5,824 nucleotides of DNA, taken from positions 1 to 5,824 of the IMG/VR virus record IMGVR_UViG_3300044275_000090; one strand, 5' to 3'. How positions within the stretch are numbered: the first letter of the stretch is position 1; the number at the start of each line of letters is the position of its first letter. Shown here in pieces: positions 1 to 5,824 of the stretch. The position numbers and the translations under genes were made by a program. This DNA comes from a virus. Under the pieces are notes generated by a model. That model did not search any database, was not told the DNA's origin, and worked only from the letters and a program-made list of their open reading frames with translations.

Positions 1-127
1 CTCCTGCTAGTGGTGTCGCTAAAGTTCTTGCTCGTGGTGGTGCAGGTTATGCTTTGTCTGTTGCAGTTGAACAGTTACTTGGTGCTGTAGATTGGGTTCT
101 AGATCCTGCTAATAATCAGATTAAGTA
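1..127. repeat. Left copy of an exact 127-nt direct terminal repeat (circular-closure overlap)
   Basis: Bases 1-127 match 5698-5824 at every position in a base-by-base comparison (offset 5697). The repeat lies inside a single reading frame that stays open across the junction. Confidence 0.95.
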
Positions 128-1145
128 TTGGGAAACAGATGCTGCTTTGCCCCCTAACACTTGTTCTGCCCCTTATACGCTTAAATATGGTTCTCAAACT
201 TTAACTACTTCACAAGTCATATCAAAAATTAAAGCCGATATTGAAATACGTAATCCTTCCAATTTTGCACAGGATTTTAACGGTGTTAAATCAATTTCTT
301 GTACTGGTTCGCAAGTTACTATTGTTGTCGGTGTAAAGTGGTGTTCAACTAATTGTGCACCCGGTATTGTTTATACTTATGGCGGTGGTGCTGGTGATCG
401 TGTTTCAACTTTCACTATTGTAGGTGAAGCCGAAAAAGAAGAACCTAAAACAATTCCCCTAGAAACTGTTGCCCAACAGGTTATTTCTAATGCCGAATCA
501 GGCGATACAAATGCTCAAGTTGCAACAACTGCAGCTGCTGCTGATATTGTTGCAGAAGCTGAAAAAGATGATGCTAAAGCTCGTCCTATTGCTCAACAAT
601 TAGAATCTTCCGCACAAACTAAGCCTGCCGACGAAGCTGCTGCTGAAAAAGCAAATGAAGCTCAAGGACAATCAAAGCCAAATACTCAAAATCCCGAAGC
701 AATGGATTTGTCTTTAGAATTTCCTGTTTTTTGTGGTTGGGCGCCTTTAGTTTGTGAAGCTGCTCAAGTTGTTATCTCTTTTCCTCAAACAATTACAAAT
801 TGGTGGGAAACAGGAAAATCAAAAGCTGAAGAATGGGCTACATCAATTTCCGAAGCTTGGACAAAAGTAAAAGAAGAATATGCTGATAAACCTGAAGAAA
901 ACACTGATACAGAATTAGATATTCCTGATCTGTCAGATGAATCCATTGATAGTGATATTTCTTTTGGTGGTTCTTGTCCTGCTCCTCTCTCCAGTGACAT
1001 AAATTTTATGGGTCTAAACAAAACTATTGAGTTTTCTTTCGACCCTGTTTGTCAGATTGCTGAATTTATTAAGCCTGTTGTTATTTCTATTTCTGCTTTT
1101 TCTGCTGCCTTAATTGTTGCAGGTATTAGAACGGAGGATGATTAA
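1..1145 (+). CDS. pIII-like adsorption/minor coat protein, 3' part (joined gene 5490..5697+1..1145 = 1353 nt, 450 aa)
   Basis: The frame is open from base 3 to the TAA at 1143-1145. The TTG start at 54 in the track is an artefact of linearisation. The architecture is pIII-like: a Cys-rich N-terminal region with Gly-rich stretches (GGWTLGGG, YGGGAGD), an Ala/Glu/Gln-rich low-complexity linker (about 500-700), and a Cys-containing C-terminal domain ending in a hydrophobic anchor (IKPVVISISAFSAALIVAGI) plus a short charged tail (RTEDD). It sits between the coat gene and the pVI-like gene. Confidence 0.8.
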   Translation, partial: PASGVAKVLARGGAGYALSVAVEQLLGAVDWVLDPANNQIKYWETDAALPPNTCSAPYTLKYGSQTLTTSQVISKIKADIEIRNPSNFAQDFNGVKSISCTGSQVTIVVGVKWCSTNCAPGIVYTYGGGAGDRVSTFTIVGEAEKEEPKTIPLETVAQQVISNAESGDTNAQVATTAAAADIVAEAEKDDAKARPIAQQLESSAQTKPADEAAAEKANEAQGQSKPNTQNPEAMDLSLEFPVFCGWAPLVCEAAQVVISFPQTITNWWETGKSKAEEWATSISEAWTKVKEEYADKPEENTDTELDIPDLSDESIDSDISFGGSCPAPLSSDINFMGLNKTIEFSFDPVCQIAEFIKPVVISISAFSAALIVAGIRTEDD

Positions 1146-1147
1146 AA

Positions 1148-1426
1148 ATGTGGTCTAAGCTTTCCGATCTGTTCACATCACTACAGAAAGGCACATTAAA
1201 AAACGTTCTTACTGGTGCAGGTCTTATGTTGGGTAGTAATGCCATTTTTCTTACTGCCTTTTCTGCTGCCGTTAATGTCTTAAAAAATTCTGTTGGCTCT
1301 GTTTCTGCCGATGTTCTTGGACTTGCTCATTTAGCAGGTTTTGACATTGCAATGTCTTTAATTCTTGGCGCTATCGTCACACGTTTAACCCTAAATTCGC
1401 AAAAGCTAATGTTGAAAAAAGCATAG
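1148..1426 (+). CDS. pVI-like minor coat / virion-cap membrane protein (92 aa; resembles the DUF2523 type found next to zot in many inoviruses)
   Basis: GGAGG at 1133-1137 and an ATG 2 nt after the upstream stop suggest translational coupling. The protein is small with two or three hydrophobic segments (GAGLMLGSNAIFLTAFSAAV; LGLAHLAGFDIAMSLILGAIV). Its position between the pIII-like and pI/Zot-like genes is the canonical gVI slot. The family assignment comes from memory of the sequence pattern, not from a search. Confidence 0.65.
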   Translation: MWSKLSDLFTSLQKGTLKNVLTGAGLMLGSNAIFLTAFSAAVNVLKNSVGSVSADVLGLAHLAGFDIAMSLILGAIVTRLTLNSQKLMLKKA

Positions 1427-1494
1427 CGACCAAAAGACATCCGCATCCGTCATCCCGTCGGCTCGCGCGGGTGCGGTGCGGTGTCTATGGTCGC
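1426..1494 (+). other. GC-rich imperfect hairpin with periodic single-T bulges; candidate packaging signal, complementary-strand origin or mRNA attenuator
   Basis: GCGACCA (1426-1432) pairs with TGGTCGC (1488-1494). The inner stem segments AGACA/CCGCA/CCG/CA/CCCG/CG pair with the 3' arm, giving about 28 bp in total. Unpaired T residues sit at 1440, 1446, 1450, 1453 and 1458, all on the 5' arm, and the loop is 1461-1465. By my count 46 of 69 bases are G+C, in an otherwise AT-rich genome. Confidence 0.6.
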
Positions 1495-1510
1495 AAAAGG
1501 AGAATAAATA

Positions 1511-2920
1511 ATGTTGCATTTGATTACTGGTACACCTGGTGCAGGAAAAACCCTTTATGCCGTTTCACTCATTGTTAAATATGAAGATGCTAACGAACGT
1601 GCTTTGATTTATAACGCTGCTGCGCTTAAACATAATAAAGAATTAATCGAGAAACATAATCTTGCTGACTATTTTGCTTCGTACTCTTACTTTAGTAAAA
1701 AGACTAAGGAACAAGAAACCGTTTTATTTGAGCCTGATCATTTTGATTATCTCAATGATCAATTACGTACTGAAAACATATTTTTAGACATTCAGTTTTA
1801 TAACGGTATTTGTAAGATTATTAAAAATGATCTTGATCTTGATCTTAAAACCCTCAAAGACGTTCGCCATATCTACGCCAATATCGACGGTTTAAAAGTT
1901 CCTAATGTTCGACCTATTGAAATTGATTGGCGCAAATGTCCTGATGGTTCAATTATTTTCTATGATGAAATTCAGCTCATCTATGAATATTCAACCGACA
2001 ATAAACAAGACAAAGAAAATATTGTTAAAGAATTAACTATTCACCGACATAGAGCATTTGATATTTATGGAATTACTCAATTTCCTTCACTGGTCCATAC
2101 CAATTATAGGGCTGTTGTTGGGTTACATTATCACTTGCATCGTGGGTGGGGTGCGCCTTCTGCCACCGTTTACGTTTGGGCAAACTGTCGAGATAAGCCT
2201 AATAGCTTGGGGAACAAGCTTACTGCTGAACGTGATTTTCGATTTAACTATCCTAAACGATTGTATCAATACTACGAGTCTGCAACAGCCAACACAGTTA
2301 AGCTGCGTGTACCTCTTAAATTATTCGCAATCCTTATTATTCCATTACTCGGATTATTTATGGTTGGTAATATGCTCTTTGGCGGTGGTAATAATTTCTT
2401 GGGTACAATCTTTGGCTCTAAAGAAAAAACAGAACAGGTAACAAAAAATGAAACTACTTCTAATCCATCCGTTAATAATTCTAGCTCTAATCTTTCTCCT
2501 TCCAGTGATCAAAAGGCTATGGATTTATCGTTAGAATGTCGAAAGGCAGTTAATTTAGAAAAGCCTGAATGTATTAAATGGTTTGATGATCTTTCTAAAA
2601 ATGGTTCTTCCGTTACTTCTACTGGTCAAGTTGTTCAAACTGTTTCTTATAATCCCAACAAGCCTTATGATTTTGAATATCAGCCACAAGTACAACCAAC
2701 AGATTTCCCCCGCATGTCAGGTGTGATTAAGCTCTCCAGTGGCAAACTTGTTGCCATTGATCAGCAGGGCAACTATATGACAGGTATTTCACAACAAGAT
2801 TGTCTAAGATGGTTAGATGGTTATCGTCCTTTTAATTATTTTGCTTCATCACCACAGCAACAGAGGGAGCGGAGTGCTCCCGAACAATCACAATTGAATC
2901 CTGAAACTTCTTCTCTCTGA
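1511..2920 (+). CDS. zot: Zot / pI-family filamentous-phage assembly ATPase (469 aa)
   Basis: AAGGAG at 1498-1503 lies 7 nt before the ATG. Walker A is GTPGAGKT (1529-1552) and Walker B is IIFYDEIQ. The Zot-typical block HRHRAFDIYGITQ is present. A single TM segment (LKLFAILIIPLLGLFMVGNMLF, about aa 269-290) is followed by a Ser/Asn-rich linker and a periplasmic C-terminal domain. It lies directly downstream of the pVI-like gene. Confidence 0.9.
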   Translation: MLHLITGTPGAGKTLYAVSLIVKYEDANERALIYNAAALKHNKELIEKHNLADYFASYSYFSKKTKEQETVLFEPDHFDYLNDQLRTENIFLDIQFYNGICKIIKNDLDLDLKTLKDVRHIYANIDGLKVPNVRPIEIDWRKCPDGSIIFYDEIQLIYEYSTDNKQDKENIVKELTIHRHRAFDIYGITQFPSLVHTNYRAVVGLHYHLHRGWGAPSATVYVWANCRDKPNSLGNKLTAERDFRFNYPKRLYQYYESATANTVKLRVPLKLFAILIIPLLGLFMVGNMLFGGGNNFLGTIFGSKEKTEQVTKNETTSNPSVNNSSSNLSPSSDQKAMDLSLECRKAVNLEKPECIKWFDDLSKNGSSVTSTGQVVQTVSYNPNKPYDFEYQPQVQPTDFPRMSGVIKLSSGKLVAIDQQGNYMTGISQQDCLRWLDGYRPFNYFASSPQQQRERSAPEQSQLNPETSSL

Positions 2921-2944
2921 TTACAAGCTCCCTTATGATCTCAA

Positions 2945-2967
2945 GCGGGATTTACAGAGCGTCCCGC
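2945..2967 (+). other. GC-rich stem-loop in the large intergenic region (origin or recombination-site candidate)
   Basis: GCGGGA (2945-2950) and TCCCGC (2962-2967) flank an 11-nt loop. A further GC-rich stretch GGGCGCG follows. It stands out compositionally in AT-rich non-coding DNA. Confidence 0.4.
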
Positions 2968-2988
2968 ATGGGCGCGAACTGAGGGAAT

Positions 2989-3078
2989 ATGGATTTTATT
3001 AAATGGTGCCTTAAATTTTTCATTATGCTGTTAGTTTTTGGCTTTCTTATTAGATTTTTTTACAGCTTTGTTTTATAG
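2989..3078 (+). CDS. Hypothetical 29-aa hydrophobic mini-protein (pVII/pIX-size candidate), absent from the ORF track
   Basis: The ATG at 2989 runs to the TAG at 3076-3078 and encodes MDFIKWCLKFFIMLLVFGFLIRFFYSFVL. GAGGGA lies just upstream at short spacing. The initiation context GGGAATATGGA resembles that of the other mini-ORF at 5443 (GGGATATATGGA). Caveat: a T-rich strand readily gives hydrophobic ORFs by chance. Confidence 0.35.
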   Translation: MDFIKWCLKFFIMLLVFGFLIRFFYSFVL

Positions 3079-3084
3079 TTAATC

Positions 3085-3112
3085 AAAATGTTTACATGAC
3101 AACAAACATTTT
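3085..3112. promoter_or_regulatory. Inverted repeat holding a 14/16 copy of the 4600-4615 operator palindrome, upstream of rep
   Basis: AAAATGTTT (3085-3093) and AAACATTTT (3104-3112) are exact reverse complements around a 10-nt loop. TGTTTACATGACAACA (3089-3104) differs at 2 of 16 positions from TGTTGTCATGACAACA (4600-4615). Confidence 0.5.
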
Positions 3113-3120
3113 TAAGGACG

Positions 3121-3152
3121 AAAAAAAACCTGAACGGCAATTCAGGCTTTTT
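3121..3152 (+). terminator. Weak bidirectional-looking intrinsic terminator or attenuator between the structural operon and rep
   Basis: The element reads A8 (3121-3128), CCTGAA (3129-3134), a 6-nt loop, TTCAGG (3141-3146), C, then T5 (3148-3152). The stem is only 6 bp, so strength is doubtful. Confidence 0.35.
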
Positions 3153-3190
3153 CGGTGAATTTGTGCTTGCGACACTGGATATATTAAACA

Positions 3191-4360
3191 ATGGATTCCT
3201 CTTTAAGTCAAATCAATACCCCAAAAATCGACGCCCTTGGTATATTTACGAAATCTCAGTCCACGCCCGAAAACAAAGGCTTTCAGAGGGTTCATGATTT
3301 TTTATTACAAGATCAATCAGCAAAGCTTTTGCCCCTTGAAAGAGTCACTAATTGTTTAAAAAGACGCATTGATAAATCTAAAGGTCGTTTCGTTAAATAC
3401 AATGAAGAAAGATGTAAAGCTCACTGGAGTAATGTTCAACGATGCGGTTCTATTTGGACTTGCCCTGTCTGTGCTAAACAAATTACTGAAAAACGTCGTG
3501 AAGAATTAAAGCAAGGTGTTAAAACTTGGAAAGATCGTTTTCAGGGTGGAATTCTTCTTTTAACTCTTACAAATAGTCATTCTGCTAGTCATTCTCTCCG
3601 TTCTCTTATTGCAGGACAAAAAAAGGCCTTAGGCTATTTCTTTGGTGATCGGAAAGGTAAGTTTCTTTTAGATGATTGTCTAGGTCGTGAATATCAAGTA
3701 CGTGCTTTTGAAGTTACTCACGGTAAAAATGGTTGGCATCCTCATTATCATATTTTGATTTTTACAAATGGTCAGCCTGTTGAAAATTTCTTTGAATTAA
3801 AACAATCCCTTTCTAAACACTGGATTAACTGCTGTCAAAAAGCAAATCTCCCCCTTCCATCCCTTCAACATGGTTTAGATATTCGTGATGGTTCTTATGC
3901 TGAACAATATGTCTCTAAATGGGGTGTTGAAAGTGAATTAACAAAAGGTCATATCAAAAAAGGTCGTGAAGGTGGTTTAACTCCTTTCGATCTGCTTCAA
4001 TCTTCTATGCTTGAACATGAATTATCTGAACAACATGGAAAGCTTTATCAGGAATTTGGTGTTGCTTTTAAAGGTGCTCGTCAATTGGTTTGGTCACGTG
4101 GTCTTAAAAAGCTTTTAGAAATTGAAGAAAAAACAGATGAAGAACTAGCAGAAGAAACAGAAAACATGGGTATTACTTTAGAAGAAGTACCACAATTAAT
4201 TTTTTCATTGTTATGTAAATATCAAAAACGTCATACATATTTAACTGCACTGGAGAATGATTACAGCTCAGGGAACTACGGCACAATCACCAGTGAAGCC
4301 TATTTATTAATAGAGGATTTAGCAAAAAGAGAAATTGCTTTTATTGAATCACACTATTAA
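3191..4360 (+). CDS. Rolling-circle replication initiator, HUH endonuclease of the pC194/pUB110 (Rep_1-like) type (389 aa)
   Basis: The motif order matches pC194-family Rep proteins as I recall them. The motifs are CGSIWTCPVCAKQITEKRR (compare RFCPVCAWRKARK), ILLLTLTNSH (compare FIFLTLTTPN), the HUH motif WHPHYHILIF (3737-3763; compare NPHFHVLIAV), the Tyr motif AEQYVSKWG (compare EMAKYSGKD) and RQLVWSRGLKK (compare RLLVYSGLFKE). Confidence 0.85.
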   Translation: MDSSLSQINTPKIDALGIFTKSQSTPENKGFQRVHDFLLQDQSAKLLPLERVTNCLKRRIDKSKGRFVKYNEERCKAHWSNVQRCGSIWTCPVCAKQITEKRREELKQGVKTWKDRFQGGILLLTLTNSHSASHSLRSLIAGQKKALGYFFGDRKGKFLLDDCLGREYQVRAFEVTHGKNGWHPHYHILIFTNGQPVENFFELKQSLSKHWINCCQKANLPLPSLQHGLDIRDGSYAEQYVSKWGVESELTKGHIKKGREGGLTPFDLLQSSMLEHELSEQHGKLYQEFGVAFKGARQLVWSRGLKKLLEIEEKTDEELAEETENMGITLEEVPQLIFSLLCKYQKRHTYLTALENDYSSGNYGTITSEAYLLIEDLAKREIAFIESHY

Positions 4361-4531
4361 TTCTCCTTTCTCAACTTTGCATTTTTCCAAAGCTTTTATT
4401 AGTACGTCGTGAAGGATTTCACTATCTTTCATGACGTTCTTTCCTAGGTCTAAACGTTGCCTATTTAGTTCTTCGCTTATCTTTTTTAGAAGCTCATCTT
4501 CTATCTTCTTTACTCGTAAATACGCCATCAT
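4349..4531 (-). CDS. Small transcriptional regulator, ribbon-helix-helix (Arc/CopG-like) candidate (60 aa)
   Basis: This is the only credible - strand gene. It is transcribed divergently from the structural operon, out of the operator-rich region. The pattern is a beta-strand-like N-terminus (AYLRVKKI), helix A (EDELLKKISEELNRQRL), a G-containing turn (DLGKNVMKDSE) and helix B (ILHDVLIKALEK). This resembles Arc (ENGRSVNSEIYQRVMESF). The fold call is by eye only. Confidence 0.55.
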   Translation of the reverse strand: MMAYLRVKKIEDELLKKISEELNRQRLDLGKNVMKDSEILHDVLIKALEKCKVEKGELIV

Positions 4532-4568
4532 TTTGAAATCTCTTAAAAAAAACTCAGTTTTTTAGTGT

Positions 4569-4619
4569 AATTTATTGTTGTCATTTCGTCTTGACAACTT
4601 GTTGTCATGACAACATAAT
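4569..4619. promoter_or_regulatory. Divergent sigma70-type promoters with overlapping -35 boxes and four operator half-sites
   Basis: The + promoter is TTGACA (4591-4596), a 17-nt spacer, then CATAAT (4614-4619). The - promoter is TTGTCA (complement of 4592-4597), a 17-nt spacer, then TAAATT (complement of 4569-4574). TGTTGTCA half-sites lie at 4576-4583 and 4600-4607. TGACAAC(A) half-sites lie at 4592-4598 and 4608-4615. Positions 4600-4615 form a perfect 16-bp palindrome filling the + promoter spacer, and 4576-4583 sits in the - promoter spacer. Confidence 0.65.
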
Positions 4620-4665
4620 ATTTCGTACAAACTTTGTGATAACAGACAAACAGAAGGGTAAAGAA

Positions 4666-4908
4666 ATGGACGGAATTAAAGTTTTAGTAGAAGGCGTTAA
4701 ATTAAATACATTCACATCAAAAAAAGGTAATGACCTCTTTACTTTTGAAGTTGTCGAGCCTGTAACTAAGTTTGTTGCATATACAAACAATTCTGAAAAA
4801 GGTCAGTTGGCTGATCTTGCGGAAAGTGGTGAATTTGTCGATTTACAACTGATTCTAAAAGGTGATCGTTTGTATTTTGCTAATGCTCAAATTTCTAATG
4901 CTCAGTAA
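4666..4908 (+). CDS. pV-like ssDNA-binding protein (80 aa)
   Basis: The ATG at 4666 is preceded by AGAAGGG 7-8 nt upstream. The tracked TTG start at 4591 coincides with the promoter -35 box and is rejected. The size (80 aa) and the slot (first gene of the structural operon, before the coat genes) fit gene V. The N-terminus MDGIKVLVEGVKLNTFTSKKGNDLF resembles M13 gVp MIKVEIKPSQAQFTTRSGVSRQGKPY. Confidence 0.6.
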   Translation: MDGIKVLVEGVKLNTFTSKKGNDLFTFEVVEPVTKFVAYTNNSEKGQLADLAESGEFVDLQLILKGDRLYFANAQISNAQ

Positions 4909-4929
4909 TTTTTACTGAGCGTTTTTTTT
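4900..4929 (+). terminator. Rho-independent terminator/attenuator overlapping the ssb stop codon
   Basis: GCTCAGTAA (4900-4908) and TTACTGAGC (4912-4920) are perfect 9-nt complements around TTT. They are followed by G and then T8 (4922-4929). Confidence 0.7.
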
Positions 4930-4941
4930 GGATTTTAAAAA

Positions 4942-5130
4942 ATGGCAAAGGTCTGTGAAATCGTTAATGAACTTACAAACCAATGCGATCTATGGATTGA
5001 TCAAGTTTCTTTGATTGATCAAATGGCAATAACAAAAGCGCAAATGATTATGTTGGGGACTCCCATTATTGGGATTTATGGCTTGATCATCGCTTTTGCT
5101 CTTTTCAATAACTTTTCCAAGAGGGCTTAA
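4942..5130 (+). CDS. Small membrane protein (62 aa) in the gVII/gIX slot; possible minor coat or assembly protein
   Basis: The ORF lies between the ssb-like and major coat genes. It has a C-terminal TM segment (MLGTPIIGIYGLIIAFALF) followed by the basic tail NNFSKRA. No clear Shine-Dalgarno element is present. An internal ATG (M28) would give a 35-aa product of pVII/pIX size. Confidence 0.5.
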   Translation: MAKVCEIVNELTNQCDLWIDQVSLIDQMAITKAQMIMLGTPIIGIYGLIIAFALFNNFSKRA

Positions 5131-5132
5131 TC

Positions 5133-5396
5133 ATGGAAAACAATCAAACTGCAATTGAGTTGCAAAAAAAACCTACTTTTGTTTCTCGCGTTAAAGATGC
5201 TGCATTTGTAGGTGCTGTTACTGGTTCTGCATTGATGCTTACTTCAGGTGCTAATGCTGCTGCTTCTTTGGACTTCACAGGTGCAACAGAAGAATTAACA
5301 GGCGTACAAACTGCCGTTGTTGGCATTATCGGTACTCTTGTTGTCTTGATCGGTATCGGCATTGCTTGGTCATACTTCAAACGTACAGCCAAGTAA
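5133..5396 (+). CDS. pVIII-like major coat protein precursor (87 aa; predicted 45-aa mature protein)
   Basis: GAGGG at 5121-5125 lies 7 nt before the ATG. The leader ends in the signal-peptidase motif SGANA/AAS. The mature part AASLDFTGATEELTGVQTAVVGIIGTLVVLIGIGIAWSYFKRTAK has the classic layout: an acidic N-terminus (D, E, E), a hydrophobic helix and a basic C-terminus (K, R, K). A strong terminator follows immediately. Confidence 0.85.
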   Translation: MENNQTAIELQKKPTFVSRVKDAAFVGAVTGSALMLTSGANAAASLDFTGATEELTGVQTAVVGIIGTLVVLIGIGIAWSYFKRTAK

Positions 5397-5404
5397 TTGG
5401 TATT

Positions 5405-5433
5405 AACGCCTCCGCTTGGGGGCGTTTTTATTT
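5405..5433 (+). terminator. Strong rho-independent terminator after the major coat gene
   Basis: AACGCCTCC (5405-5413) pairs with GGGGGCGTT (5418-5426), giving 8 Watson-Crick pairs plus one G-T, around the loop GCTT. The trailing sequence is TTTATTT. The placement matches the terminator after gene VIII in Ff phages. Confidence 0.8.
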
Positions 5434-5442
5434 GGGGGATAT

Positions 5443-5526
5443 ATGGAAGAACAAGCATCAATTTTATACTGGATTCCTTTGGTGGTCACATGGGTCGCAT
5501 TACATCTTTTAGCAAGCAAGTTATAG
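5443..5526 (+). CDS. Hypothetical 27-aa hydrophobic mini-protein (pVII/pIX-size candidate), absent from the ORF track; overlaps the pIII-like start out of frame
   Basis: The ATG at 5443 runs to the TAG at 5524-5526 and encodes MEEQASILYWIPLVVTWVALHLLASKL, with an acidic N-terminus, a single hydrophobic helix and a basic end. GGGGGA lies at 5434-5439, just upstream. Its stop lies 34 nt inside the pIII-like ORF, which would allow coupled translation. Confidence 0.4.
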   Translation: MEEQASILYWIPLVVTWVALHLLASKL

Positions 5527-5824
5527 TTTTTTTTCTTGTTACAGCCTTAATTATTCGTCCTACTTTTGCTGCCAATGTTGGCGGTTGGACTTTGGGCGGT
5601 GGTGTTGCTCAAGGTGCTTCTACTGTTTATGAGGGTACAAAAAAAGTCGTTATTGATGGTGTTGATTATATAAAAAAAGGCACTGCAAAAATTACACCTC
5701 CTGCTAGTGGTGTCGCTAAAGTTCTTGCTCGTGGTGGTGCAGGTTATGCTTTGTCTGTTGCAGTTGAACAGTTACTTGGTGCTGTAGATTGGGTTCTAGA
5801 TCCTGCTAATAATCAGATTAAGTA
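5490..5824 (+). CDS. pIII-like adsorption/minor coat protein, 5' part (signal peptide and N-terminus); continues across the circular junction into 1-1145
   Basis: The ATG at 5490 is in the same frame as tracked ORF 54..1145 (5490 and 5751=54+5697 are both 0 mod 3), with no stop through 5824. The N-terminus MGRITSFSKQVIVFFLVTALIIRPTFA/ANVGG has a basic n-region, a hydrophobic core and an A-x-A-like cleavage site. A GGTGG Shine-Dalgarno-like element lies 4 nt upstream. The ORF track missed it because the ORF runs off the window end. Confidence 0.75.
   Translation, partial: MGRITSFSKQVIVFFLVTALIIRPTFAANVGGWTLGGGVAQGASTVYEGTKKVVIDGVDYIKKGTAKITPPASGVAKVLARGGAGYALSVAVEQLLGAVDWVLDPANNQIK
5698..5824. 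repeat. Right copy of the exact 127-nt direct terminal repeat
   Basis: Identical to 1-127. An exact end overlap of this kind is what a circular molecule yields when written out as a linear contig. Confidence 0.95.

Follow-up and report, generated by a model that had tools for sequence, protein, structure and literature searches.

The DNA analysed here (IMG/VR virus record IMGVR_UViG_3300044275_000090, positions 1 to 5,824; this whole stretch of 5,824 nt, GC 37.2%, is referred to as the window) is very probably the complete 5,697-nt circle of an uncultivated inovirus (Tubulavirales), printed with the overlap left by an assembler working at k=127. The analysis covered assembled sequence. An earlier note on the window had proposed a circular 5,697-bp genome with a 127-nt overlap, an open reading frame (ORF) running through the junction and a k=127 assembler as the source of the overlap; the first two proposals were confirmed, and the third was supported.

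Closure and persistence of the circle

Positions 1-127 were found to be exactly identical to 5698-5824, 127 nt being the longest exact match between the start and the end of the window. The two copies are the following:

1-127, no strand: assembly overlap of 127 nt, copy 1, inside the pIII-like gene; internal and single-copy in contig L012
5698-5824, no strand: 127-nt overlap, copy 2, redundant

Since the second copy is redundant, the true genome corresponds to positions 1-5697, and collapsing the overlap gives a unit of 5,697 nt. ORF tracing showed that the frame of the ORF at 54-1145 stays open upstream through the junction up to a stop codon at 5394-5396, with the first ATG at 5490. A single pIII-like ORF of 450 aa, from ATG 5490 to the stop at 1145, spans the junction, and therefore both ends of the window are parts of one gene.

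By exact-protein look-up, the window's Zot and Rep were found together in only one other contig, Logan SRR35899594_1824012 (L012; 5,727 nt). Its ends overlap by 30 nt, presumably as expected from a Logan assembly k of 31, and the remaining 5,697-nt unit equals the window circle exactly when the latter is rotated to start at position 2952. The junction of the window is thus internal in L012 (position 2746), the break of L012 is internal in the window, and the 450-aa pIII-like gene was called intact in L012. Both contigs may come from the same reads, but the assembler and the break point are different.

Related contigs behaved in the same way. The IMG/VR relatives L005 (UViG_3300011892_000013) and L006 (UViG_3300027710_000677) are collinear with the window straight over the junction. 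L021 (127-nt overlap) and L022 (55 nt), from different samples, each close to 6,233 nt, and L023 (55 nt) and L024 (30 nt) each close to 5,647 nt. L048 (127-nt overlap) closes to 5,631 nt, the length of L006; in L006, the zot gene is split over the two ends of the contig. The end-overlap lengths among related contigs (127, 141, 77, 55 and 30 nt) resemble assembler k or k-1 values, which supports a k=127 origin of the overlap in the window. A linear molecule with genuine direct terminal repeats of 127 nt would explain the identity of the two ends and nothing more. Its ends would split an essential gene in two, a second assembler broke the sequence elsewhere and read across the junction, the break points differ among relatives, and overlaps of these lengths do not look like a biological repeat. 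The linear form is, therefore, effectively refuted.

Assemblies cannot tell a free circle from a tandem array, and a tandemly integrated prophage would assemble identically, which has to be set against reading the window as a free circle. The element could be mainly a prophage integrated as a tandem array in the chromosome, like CTXphi or Ypf, with the circle being the assembler's collapse of head-to-tail copies. Such arrays yield the same end-overlap signature, and multimeric contigs exist in the clade (the exact dimer L035 and the hetero-multimers L037 and L018). In addition, filamentous prophages of Acinetobacter that have no transposase may rely on the host XerCD and occur as tandem repeats (PMC11209303). 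However, neither an integrase nor a transposase was found among the ORFs of the circle, and a search for a dif-like attP (XerC arm, 6-nt spacer, XerD arm) with an Acinetobacter-type pdif pattern at up to three mismatches gave no site, although a divergent site could escape this pattern.

The clade set, 28 related contigs from many samples, also argues against integration. The clade is common in metagenomes, and its contigs are of 1.5-6.5 kb save three multimers, with no chromosomal (non-phage) flanks in any of them. The earlier note had considered that the sequence might turn up embedded in a larger replicon, and the contigs above 6.5 kb turned out to be multimers. Two probes gave no match in GTDB representative genomes: an exact 40-mer from the variable pIII region was absent from JGI metagenomes, IMG/VR and GTDB genomes, and a conserved 33-mer from the operator region was found in three further metagenome contigs, each of at most 5.8 kb, with no genome match. 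Finally, the related L013, a 5,674-nt circle in the isolate assembly of Acinetobacter sp. LH3_13, has about 1,442x coverage according to its contig name, which fits a multicopy episome. On this evidence, an integrated array is quite unlikely, and the phage most likely persists as an episome.

Gene content and virion proteins

The circle is filled by eight genes, seven of them on one strand (the packaged sense) and a 60-aa ORF divergent. The order rep-ssb-small-MCP-pIII-pVI-pI on one strand (MCP, major coat protein) is the canonical inovirus order, and the same order was found among the called genes of more than 20 relatives. The inovirus profile of the International Committee on Taxonomy of Viruses (ICTV) comprises a circular genome of 5.5-10.6 kb and 7-15 proteins (PMC8491893), and 5,697 nt with eight genes fit this range. 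The earlier note had placed the genome at the very small end of the group; it is small and near the lower ICTV bound, but within the range, with sister circles of 5,631 and 5,647 nt, and Pf3 (5,833 nt) is comparably small. A secretin (pIV) gene is absent from the gene set of the circle. Scans of the window for tRNA and tmRNA, and against Rfam at the gathering threshold, returned nothing.

The full filamentous-phage module set that had been described in the earlier note was largely recovered. Six assignments are backed by profiles or structure, and the profiles suggested there for Zot (PF05707) and Rep_1 (PF01446) were both matched above cutoff; the assignment of a regulator lacks such backing. 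The virion and assembly genes are the following:

5490-5697, plus strand: pIII-like adsorption/minor coat gene, 5' part with signal peptide MGRITSFSKQVIVFFLVTALIIRPTFA; continues at base 1
1-1145, plus strand: pIII-like gene, 3' part, with Ala/Glu-rich linker, TspB-type C-terminal domain and C-terminal membrane anchor
1148-1426, plus strand: pVI-like minor coat protein, 92 aa, DUF2523 (PF10734)
1511-2920, plus strand: Zot/pI morphogenesis ATPase, 469 aa, with periplasmic C-terminal domain (PF05707)
4942-5130, plus strand: 62-aa protein with a single transmembrane segment (residues 36-54), at the pVII/pIX position by gene order
5133-5396, plus strand: major coat protein precursor, 87 aa, from its layout and from PF05356 via homologues

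The Zot protein matched PF05707 with 55.3 bits (cutoff 20.3) and phrog_197 with E = 4e-63. It has the Walker A sequence GTPGAGKT, read from the sequence, and a single transmembrane segment at residues 267-285. A pI/Zot-type ATPase with a P-loop and a single transmembrane segment is the inovirus marker of Roux et al. 2019 (PMC6813254), and the window Zot carries both elements. The pIII-like protein matched phrog_7568 (E = 1e-83) and NCBIfam NF041109 VF_TspB_C_term (67 bits, cutoff 24), this C-terminal domain being the only one named in the NCBIfam scan of the window proteins; an N-terminal signal-like hydrophobic segment and a transmembrane segment at 425-443, as C-terminal anchor, were also found. 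For the pVI-like protein, PF10734 gave 38.6 bits (cutoff 22.1) and phrog_1242 E = 1e-16.

The major coat protein itself was below threshold for PF05356 (E = 0.035), while eight of its ten positional homologues matched this family, with a best E of 1e-16. The precursor shows a leader ending in ...SGANA, an acidic N-terminus, a hydrophobic core with a transmembrane segment at 60-78, and a basic C-terminus (KRTAK). The 62-aa protein is 98% identical in L023, and its PHROG match was weak.

Some peculiarities of Zot were also observed. Compared with the 382-aa Zot of L013, the window protein has an insertion of about 80 aa (residues 33-109, window 1607-1837) directly after the Walker A helix, and the Pfam Zot profile covers only residues 140-259. 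A 20-nt direct repeat, AAxCxATGGATTxxTCxTTA, is present at window positions 697-716, 2514-2533 and 3186-3205, encoding (A)MDLSLE in pIII and Zot and MDSSL at the start of Rep. It marks the boundary of the C-terminal domain in pIII and in Zot, and in the latter the near-identity to L013 Zot starts there; the repeat could be a recombination microhomology or a coincidence. The internal Met of MDLSLE in Zot was considered as a pXI-like start and rejected, given that it follows the transmembrane segment and is not Met in L013.

Replication initiator, candidate origin and expression

The replication and control elements are the following:

3191-4360, plus strand: Rep_1-family rolling-circle initiator, 389 aa (PF01446)
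2913-2932, plus strand: candidate double-strand origin CTCTCTGATTACAAGCTCCC, straddling the zot stop codon
within this candidate origin: predicted Rep cleavage target containing CTCTGATTACAAGCTCCC, cut after G2919
2921-3190, plus strand: main intergenic region, from an alignment of eight relatives
2945-2967, main intergenic region: hairpin GCGGGA...TCCCGC
3085-3103, upstream of rep: invariant box AAAATGTTTACATGACAAC, related to the GTTGTCA/TGACAAC operator repeats
3129-3146: terminator-like hairpin between zot and rep (terminator scan)
4349-4531, minus strand: conserved divergent ORF of 60 aa, putative regulator (phrog_5642, E = 2e-15)
4569-4622, no strand: divergent promoter/operator region, from promoter scan, inverted repeats and conservation
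4666-4908, plus strand: 80-aa protein with predicted OB fold, presumed single-stranded DNA (ssDNA)-binding protein and gene V analogue
4897-4923, plus strand: terminator-like hairpin with T-run, overlapping the end of the ssb-like gene (terminator scan)
5405-5426, plus strand: strong terminator-like hairpin directly 3' of the coat gene, with a 9-bp stem, six GC pairs and a T-run

The initiator matched PF01446 with 45.1 bits (cutoff 33.2). It presents a Cys cluster (C55/C85/C91/C94), a motif 1 LLTLT, the HUH motif WHPHYH and a catalytic-type Y240xxK243. In an alignment of 15 Rep sequences, C55, C85, C91, C94, T125, T127, W182-H183-P184-H185-x-H187 and Y240-x-x-K243 were invariant; such a motif set was reportedly defined by Ilyina and Koonin in 1992 as the classical signature of superfamily-I rolling-circle initiators. 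Over its full length, the protein is 52-60% identical to the Reps of Acinetobacter plasmids of 1.6-2.7 kb. Sequence searches in the PDB with Rep, the ssb-like protein and the 60-aa ORF gave nothing useful.

The canonical nick heptamer of Rep_1 initiators is CTTGATA (PMC10378824). In the window clade, a different motif, CyCTGATTACAAGCTCCC, is conserved among the phage relatives, and with up to three mismatches it was also found on the rep strand upstream of rep in six of the eight small Acinetobacter Rep_1 plasmids examined. When the variant motif CTCTGATTACAAG was aligned to the pC194 origin TTCTTTCTTATCTTGATAATAAGGG (PMC7072734), the local score was reached by 3 of 500 shuffled sequences (better than 497 of 500). 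From the conservation of the motif upstream of rep and its likeness to pC194, CTCTCTGATTACAAGCTCCC at 2913-2932 is proposed as the probable double-strand origin of Rep. By analogy with the pC194 nick CTTG/ATA, the cleavage is predicted between G2919 and A2920, as CTCTG/ATTACAAG. Since the variant motif CTCTGATTACAAG is conserved together with this Rep subfamily, the replicon would behave as a Rep_1 replicon whose nick motif has diverged.

Several observations weigh against this assignment. The plus strand lacks CTTGATA, and the origin had to be assigned from the variant motif; the lone copy of the heptamer lies on the minus strand within rep, at chance frequency, and is not conserved in relatives. 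The variant motif is also located at the zot end of L013, which has a different Rep and no detectable Rep_1 gene. L013 shares with the window, in addition, the 3' coding sequence of zot adjoining the motif, which forms the 3' edge of the Zot C-terminal block common to both genomes; this pattern is compatible with recombination in the origin or close to it, but loosens a strict link between Rep_1 and the motif. As for structure, the whole 270-nt intergenic region folded as ssDNA was no better than shuffled sequences (z = -0.11), and neither an unusually structured packaging signal nor such a minus-strand origin is claimed.

The shared block of the window (2881-2932) and L013 (3206-3257) is 52 nt long and 94% identical, in genomes that are otherwise unalignable (<7% overall). 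The match stops 12 nt past the zot stop codon, at the end of the proposed origin motif, and looks like a sharp recombination boundary. Within the intergenic region, the stem at 3129-3146 stays paired via compensatory changes in L018 and L021 in the alignment of eight relatives. No Shine-Dalgarno sequence was seen in the start region of rep (3147-3193), where a -10-like TATATT stops 5 nt short of the ATG, which makes a leaderless rep mRNA possible. For pTS236, an unusual UUG start was described for RepA, with the -10 element of a putative promoter placed inside the double-strand origin (PMC3715749).

The 80-aa protein had no sequence match in Pfam, NCBIfam or the PDB. Its AlphaFold model (pLDDT 85.9) shows the beta-beta-beta-alpha-beta-beta topology of an OB fold, and Foldseek retrieved SSB, RPA and LEF-3 OB folds with TM scores of 0.55-0.65 and weak E-values. 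It is presumed to be the ssDNA-binding protein from this modelled fold and the position of the gene. Speaking against this role, the OB matches have E-values of 0.0016 or worse and include OB proteins that do not bind DNA (toxin B subunits, SilF).

The 60-aa ORF is 77-100% identical among relatives. The earlier note had labelled it as a regulator, and this label found no backing: no helix-turn-helix (HTH) or ribbon-helix-helix (RHH) profile and no Pfam or NCBIfam match were obtained, and the best E in the PDB sequence search was 0.096. The model (pLDDT 94.7) consists of two helices and a small hairpin, with no recognisable DNA-binding fold and no Foldseek match at E <0.07 in PDB or BFVD, which also counts against a DNA-binding regulator. 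An RHH fold was considered and dropped, the N-terminus of the model being a helix and not a strand. A regulatory role is a reasonable inference from the position of the ORF and the nearby palindromes alone.

These palindromes lie over the main promoter. The promoter scan gave TTGACA-17-CATAAT at 4591-4619 on the plus strand, with an 11/12 match, overlapped by four GTTGTCA/TGACAAC half-sites that include the perfect palindrome TGTTGTCATGACAACA at 4600-4615. The elements of this promoter/operator region are kept in nine relatives. Ff phages have a similar layout, in which a strong promoter yields plentiful transcripts of ssb and the coat gene while the genes further downstream are attenuated.

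A life cycle can be proposed from the gene content and the established biology of Ff, Pf and CTXphi. The phage would enter via its pIII-like protein, and host enzymes would then build the double-stranded replicative form. The Rep_1 HUH initiator would nick the plus strand at the pC194-like origin (2919/2920), leading to rolling-circle synthesis, and the progeny ssDNA would be coated by the 80-aa OB-fold protein. The main promoter at 4591-4619 would drive ssb, the gene of the 62-aa protein (orf62) and the coat gene, and downstream expression would be graded by the hairpin terminators that follow these ssb and coat genes. The 60-aa protein would probably bind the GTTGTCA/TGACAAC repeats over the promoter and the related box upstream of rep. 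Finally, the Zot/pI ATPase would assemble virions at the inner membrane, with extrusion through a host secretin, which is invoked because no pIV gene is present.

Relatives, small plasmids and host

No match to the whole circle was found among the INPHARED phages by sensitive blastn, and thus no GenBank phage matched at the DNA level. The nearest genome is the 5,647-nt circle of L023/L024 (ENA ERZ28641130 'SUKU23-1' scaffold_3471; Logan ERR9968928), of identical architecture, with about 79% of the window bases identical genome-wide. Phage species are generally delimited at the 95% level in ICTV practice, and L023 falls below it. Its Zot (97%), 60-aa ORF (100%), ssb-like protein (96%), orf62 product (98%) and coat protein (90%) are close to those of the window, whereas Rep (67%), pIII (61%) and pVI (73%) differ. 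Along the genome, L023 is 92-98% identical to the window except for the Rep core and the pIII N-terminus. The window represents a new, previously undeposited species of uncultivated inovirus in an unclassified lineage, of a kind already known.

L005 and L006 show the complementary pattern. From the origin through rep they share 94-100% DNA identity with the window, in a block comprising the intergenic region, Rep and the 60-aa ORF, and in L006 also the ssb-like gene. Their Rep protein is 99% identical to that of the window, while elsewhere the genomes are about 50% identical and the structural and assembly proteins 40-61%, that is, a common replication module is combined with a different virion module. 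With L023-like and L005/L006-like blocks side by side, the window reads as a recombinant of modules of known type, a mosaic of an L023-like backbone and an L006-like Rep gene as judged from the alignments. Mosaicism and gene exchange with plasmids have already been described for inoviruses (Roux et al. 2019, PMC6813254).

The three multimers of the clade differ from one another. L035 (ENA ERZ28615135, 1-12956) consists of two exact tandem copies (period 6,750 nt), which are 100% identical over 6,206 nt. L037 (JGI 3300057063, 1-11687) contains two different, related phage genomes in tandem, whose halves share 354 of 5,386 15-mers. In L018 (JGI 3300076574, 1-8295), two copies of the zot 3' end with the CTGATTACA motif were found, one at 191 and one at 6272; to their left, the flanks agree at 97% over 190 nt, and rightward the copies match for about 57 nt and then diverge. 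After the first copy come an HTH_3 repressor, a Phage_CRI Rep and a complete virion module, and after the second the Rep_1, 60-aa ORF and ssb module, with a Rep 86% identical to that of the window. L018 looks like a head-to-tail hetero-dimer of two inoviruses joined at the zot end and origin, or an assembly chimera.

Outside the clade, the closest Reps are those of small R1-type Rep_1 plasmids of Acinetobacter such as pM131-9, pSRM3.2 and pIC001D, with CyCTGATTACAAGCTCCC on the same strand upstream of rep. These plasmids, of 1.6-2.7 kb, have no virion genes. Since the non-Rep proteins of the window gave no tblastn match in 11 small plasmids, only Rep and the origin motif are shared with them. 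Among the more distant pTS236, Sphinx 2.36 and BMMF2 circles, pTS236 and BMMF2 are nicked at the canonical CTTGATA (PMC10378824, PMC3715749), a site that the window clade does not conserve. A related Rep is also encoded by two Acinetobacter plasmids of larger size (5.9 and 7.2 kb); these were considered as mis-annotated phages and rejected, as they carry T4SS/Mob or RepM genes.

The window could also be a rolling-circle plasmid carrying a non-functional inovirus morphogenesis block and no longer making virions, given that this type of Rep and origin motif is otherwise found mostly on the 1.6-2.7 kb Acinetobacter plasmids. However, none of its eight genes is disrupted, and all lie close together on the strands where they are expected. 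Conservation of the structural genes extends to many relatives, which come from different samples, and the mosaic has the form usual in active inoviruses, with an N-terminus of pIII that varies and a Zot and a coat protein that are conserved. A defunct plasmid is, therefore, very unlikely, and the window is better read as an inovirus genome. Since the Rep_1 gene and the CTGATTACAAG origin are common to this inovirus clade and to the cryptic plasmids, the latter might conversely be deletion derivatives or satellites resembling phagemids, which such phages would package or replicate in trans. This is a speculative idea and rather unlikely; if true, Rep-mediated joining of origin to origin would yield hetero-multimers such as L018 and L037 and would drive module swapping.

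Regarding the host, Acinetobacter or a near relative within the Moraxellaceae is probable, with moderate confidence. The 24 top plasmid Rep matches listed were all from Acinetobacter, with Psychrobacter next at 48%, and the C-terminal 130 aa or so of the window Zot (the periplasmic domain) are about 90% identical to Zot of L013, from the Acinetobacter isolate assembly. The likeness of pIII and Zot to those of A. baumannii phage M02 and the GC content of about 37% were counted with this evidence. The lines of evidence agree with one another, but the assignment is indirect, which is to be held against it. Several relatives could be sewage-derived, as the scaffold labels MUNK22-1 and SUKU23-1 were read as sewage-metagenome studies from the labels only.

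Among known phages, the best Zot matches were Dulem virus 65 and Acinetobacter phage M02 (A. baumannii; OQ693633, 6,243 nt). M02 and L013 have the gene order of the window, a TspB-type pIII, a DUF2523 pVI, Zot and no secretin, but their Reps are different from and unrelated to the window Rep, and overall DNA similarity is <7%. In M02, pIII is 30% and Zot 34-42% identical to the window proteins, and in Pf3 Zot is 34% identical. The best Rep matches among phages were blackswan219-6 (38%), PMBT54 and Propionibacterium B5, at 28-38% identity. Propionibacterium phage B5 (5.8 kb), Pseudomonas phage PMBT54 and blackswan219-6 have a similar size and module order and a Rep_1-like initiator; these three and Pf3 belong to different genera with no DNA-level similarity to the window, and the host of B5 is Gram-positive.

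The window provides a closed reference genome for a compact inovirus lineage lacking secretin and integrase, which recurs in metagenomes and is absent from GenBank phage records. It also documents that filamentous phages exchange replication modules with small cryptic plasmids, the dominant kind in Acinetobacter plasmidomes. Acinetobacter is a priority pathogen genus, and the first characterisation of its filamentous phages reportedly dates from no earlier than 2024. The practical value is modest, consisting of an Acinetobacter host lead and a candidate for a divergent Rep_1 origin that can be tested biochemically. No concept is changed, and only two aspects are mildly unusual: the Rep_1 origin, which is divergent and also present in cryptic Acinetobacter mini-plasmids, and the occurrence of hetero-multimeric contigs in the clade.

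Two further records were noted. L014 (NZ_JBMOSL010000023, 6,213 nt), labelled Brevundimonas sp. NPDC058933, is inovirus-like, with a Zot 45% identical to that of the window and a GC content of 37%. Brevundimonas has a GC content of about 67%, far above this value, and L014 probably stems from contamination or is the episome of a different organism. L001, from a Thiomicrospira sp. metagenome-assembled genome (NZ_DATCSL010000129), has 2,314 nt and a 141-nt end overlap, giving a circle of 2,173 nt. A Rep 49% identical to that of the window is its sole detected similarity, and the contig resembles a mini rolling-circle replicon, here in a bin from outside the Moraxellaceae.

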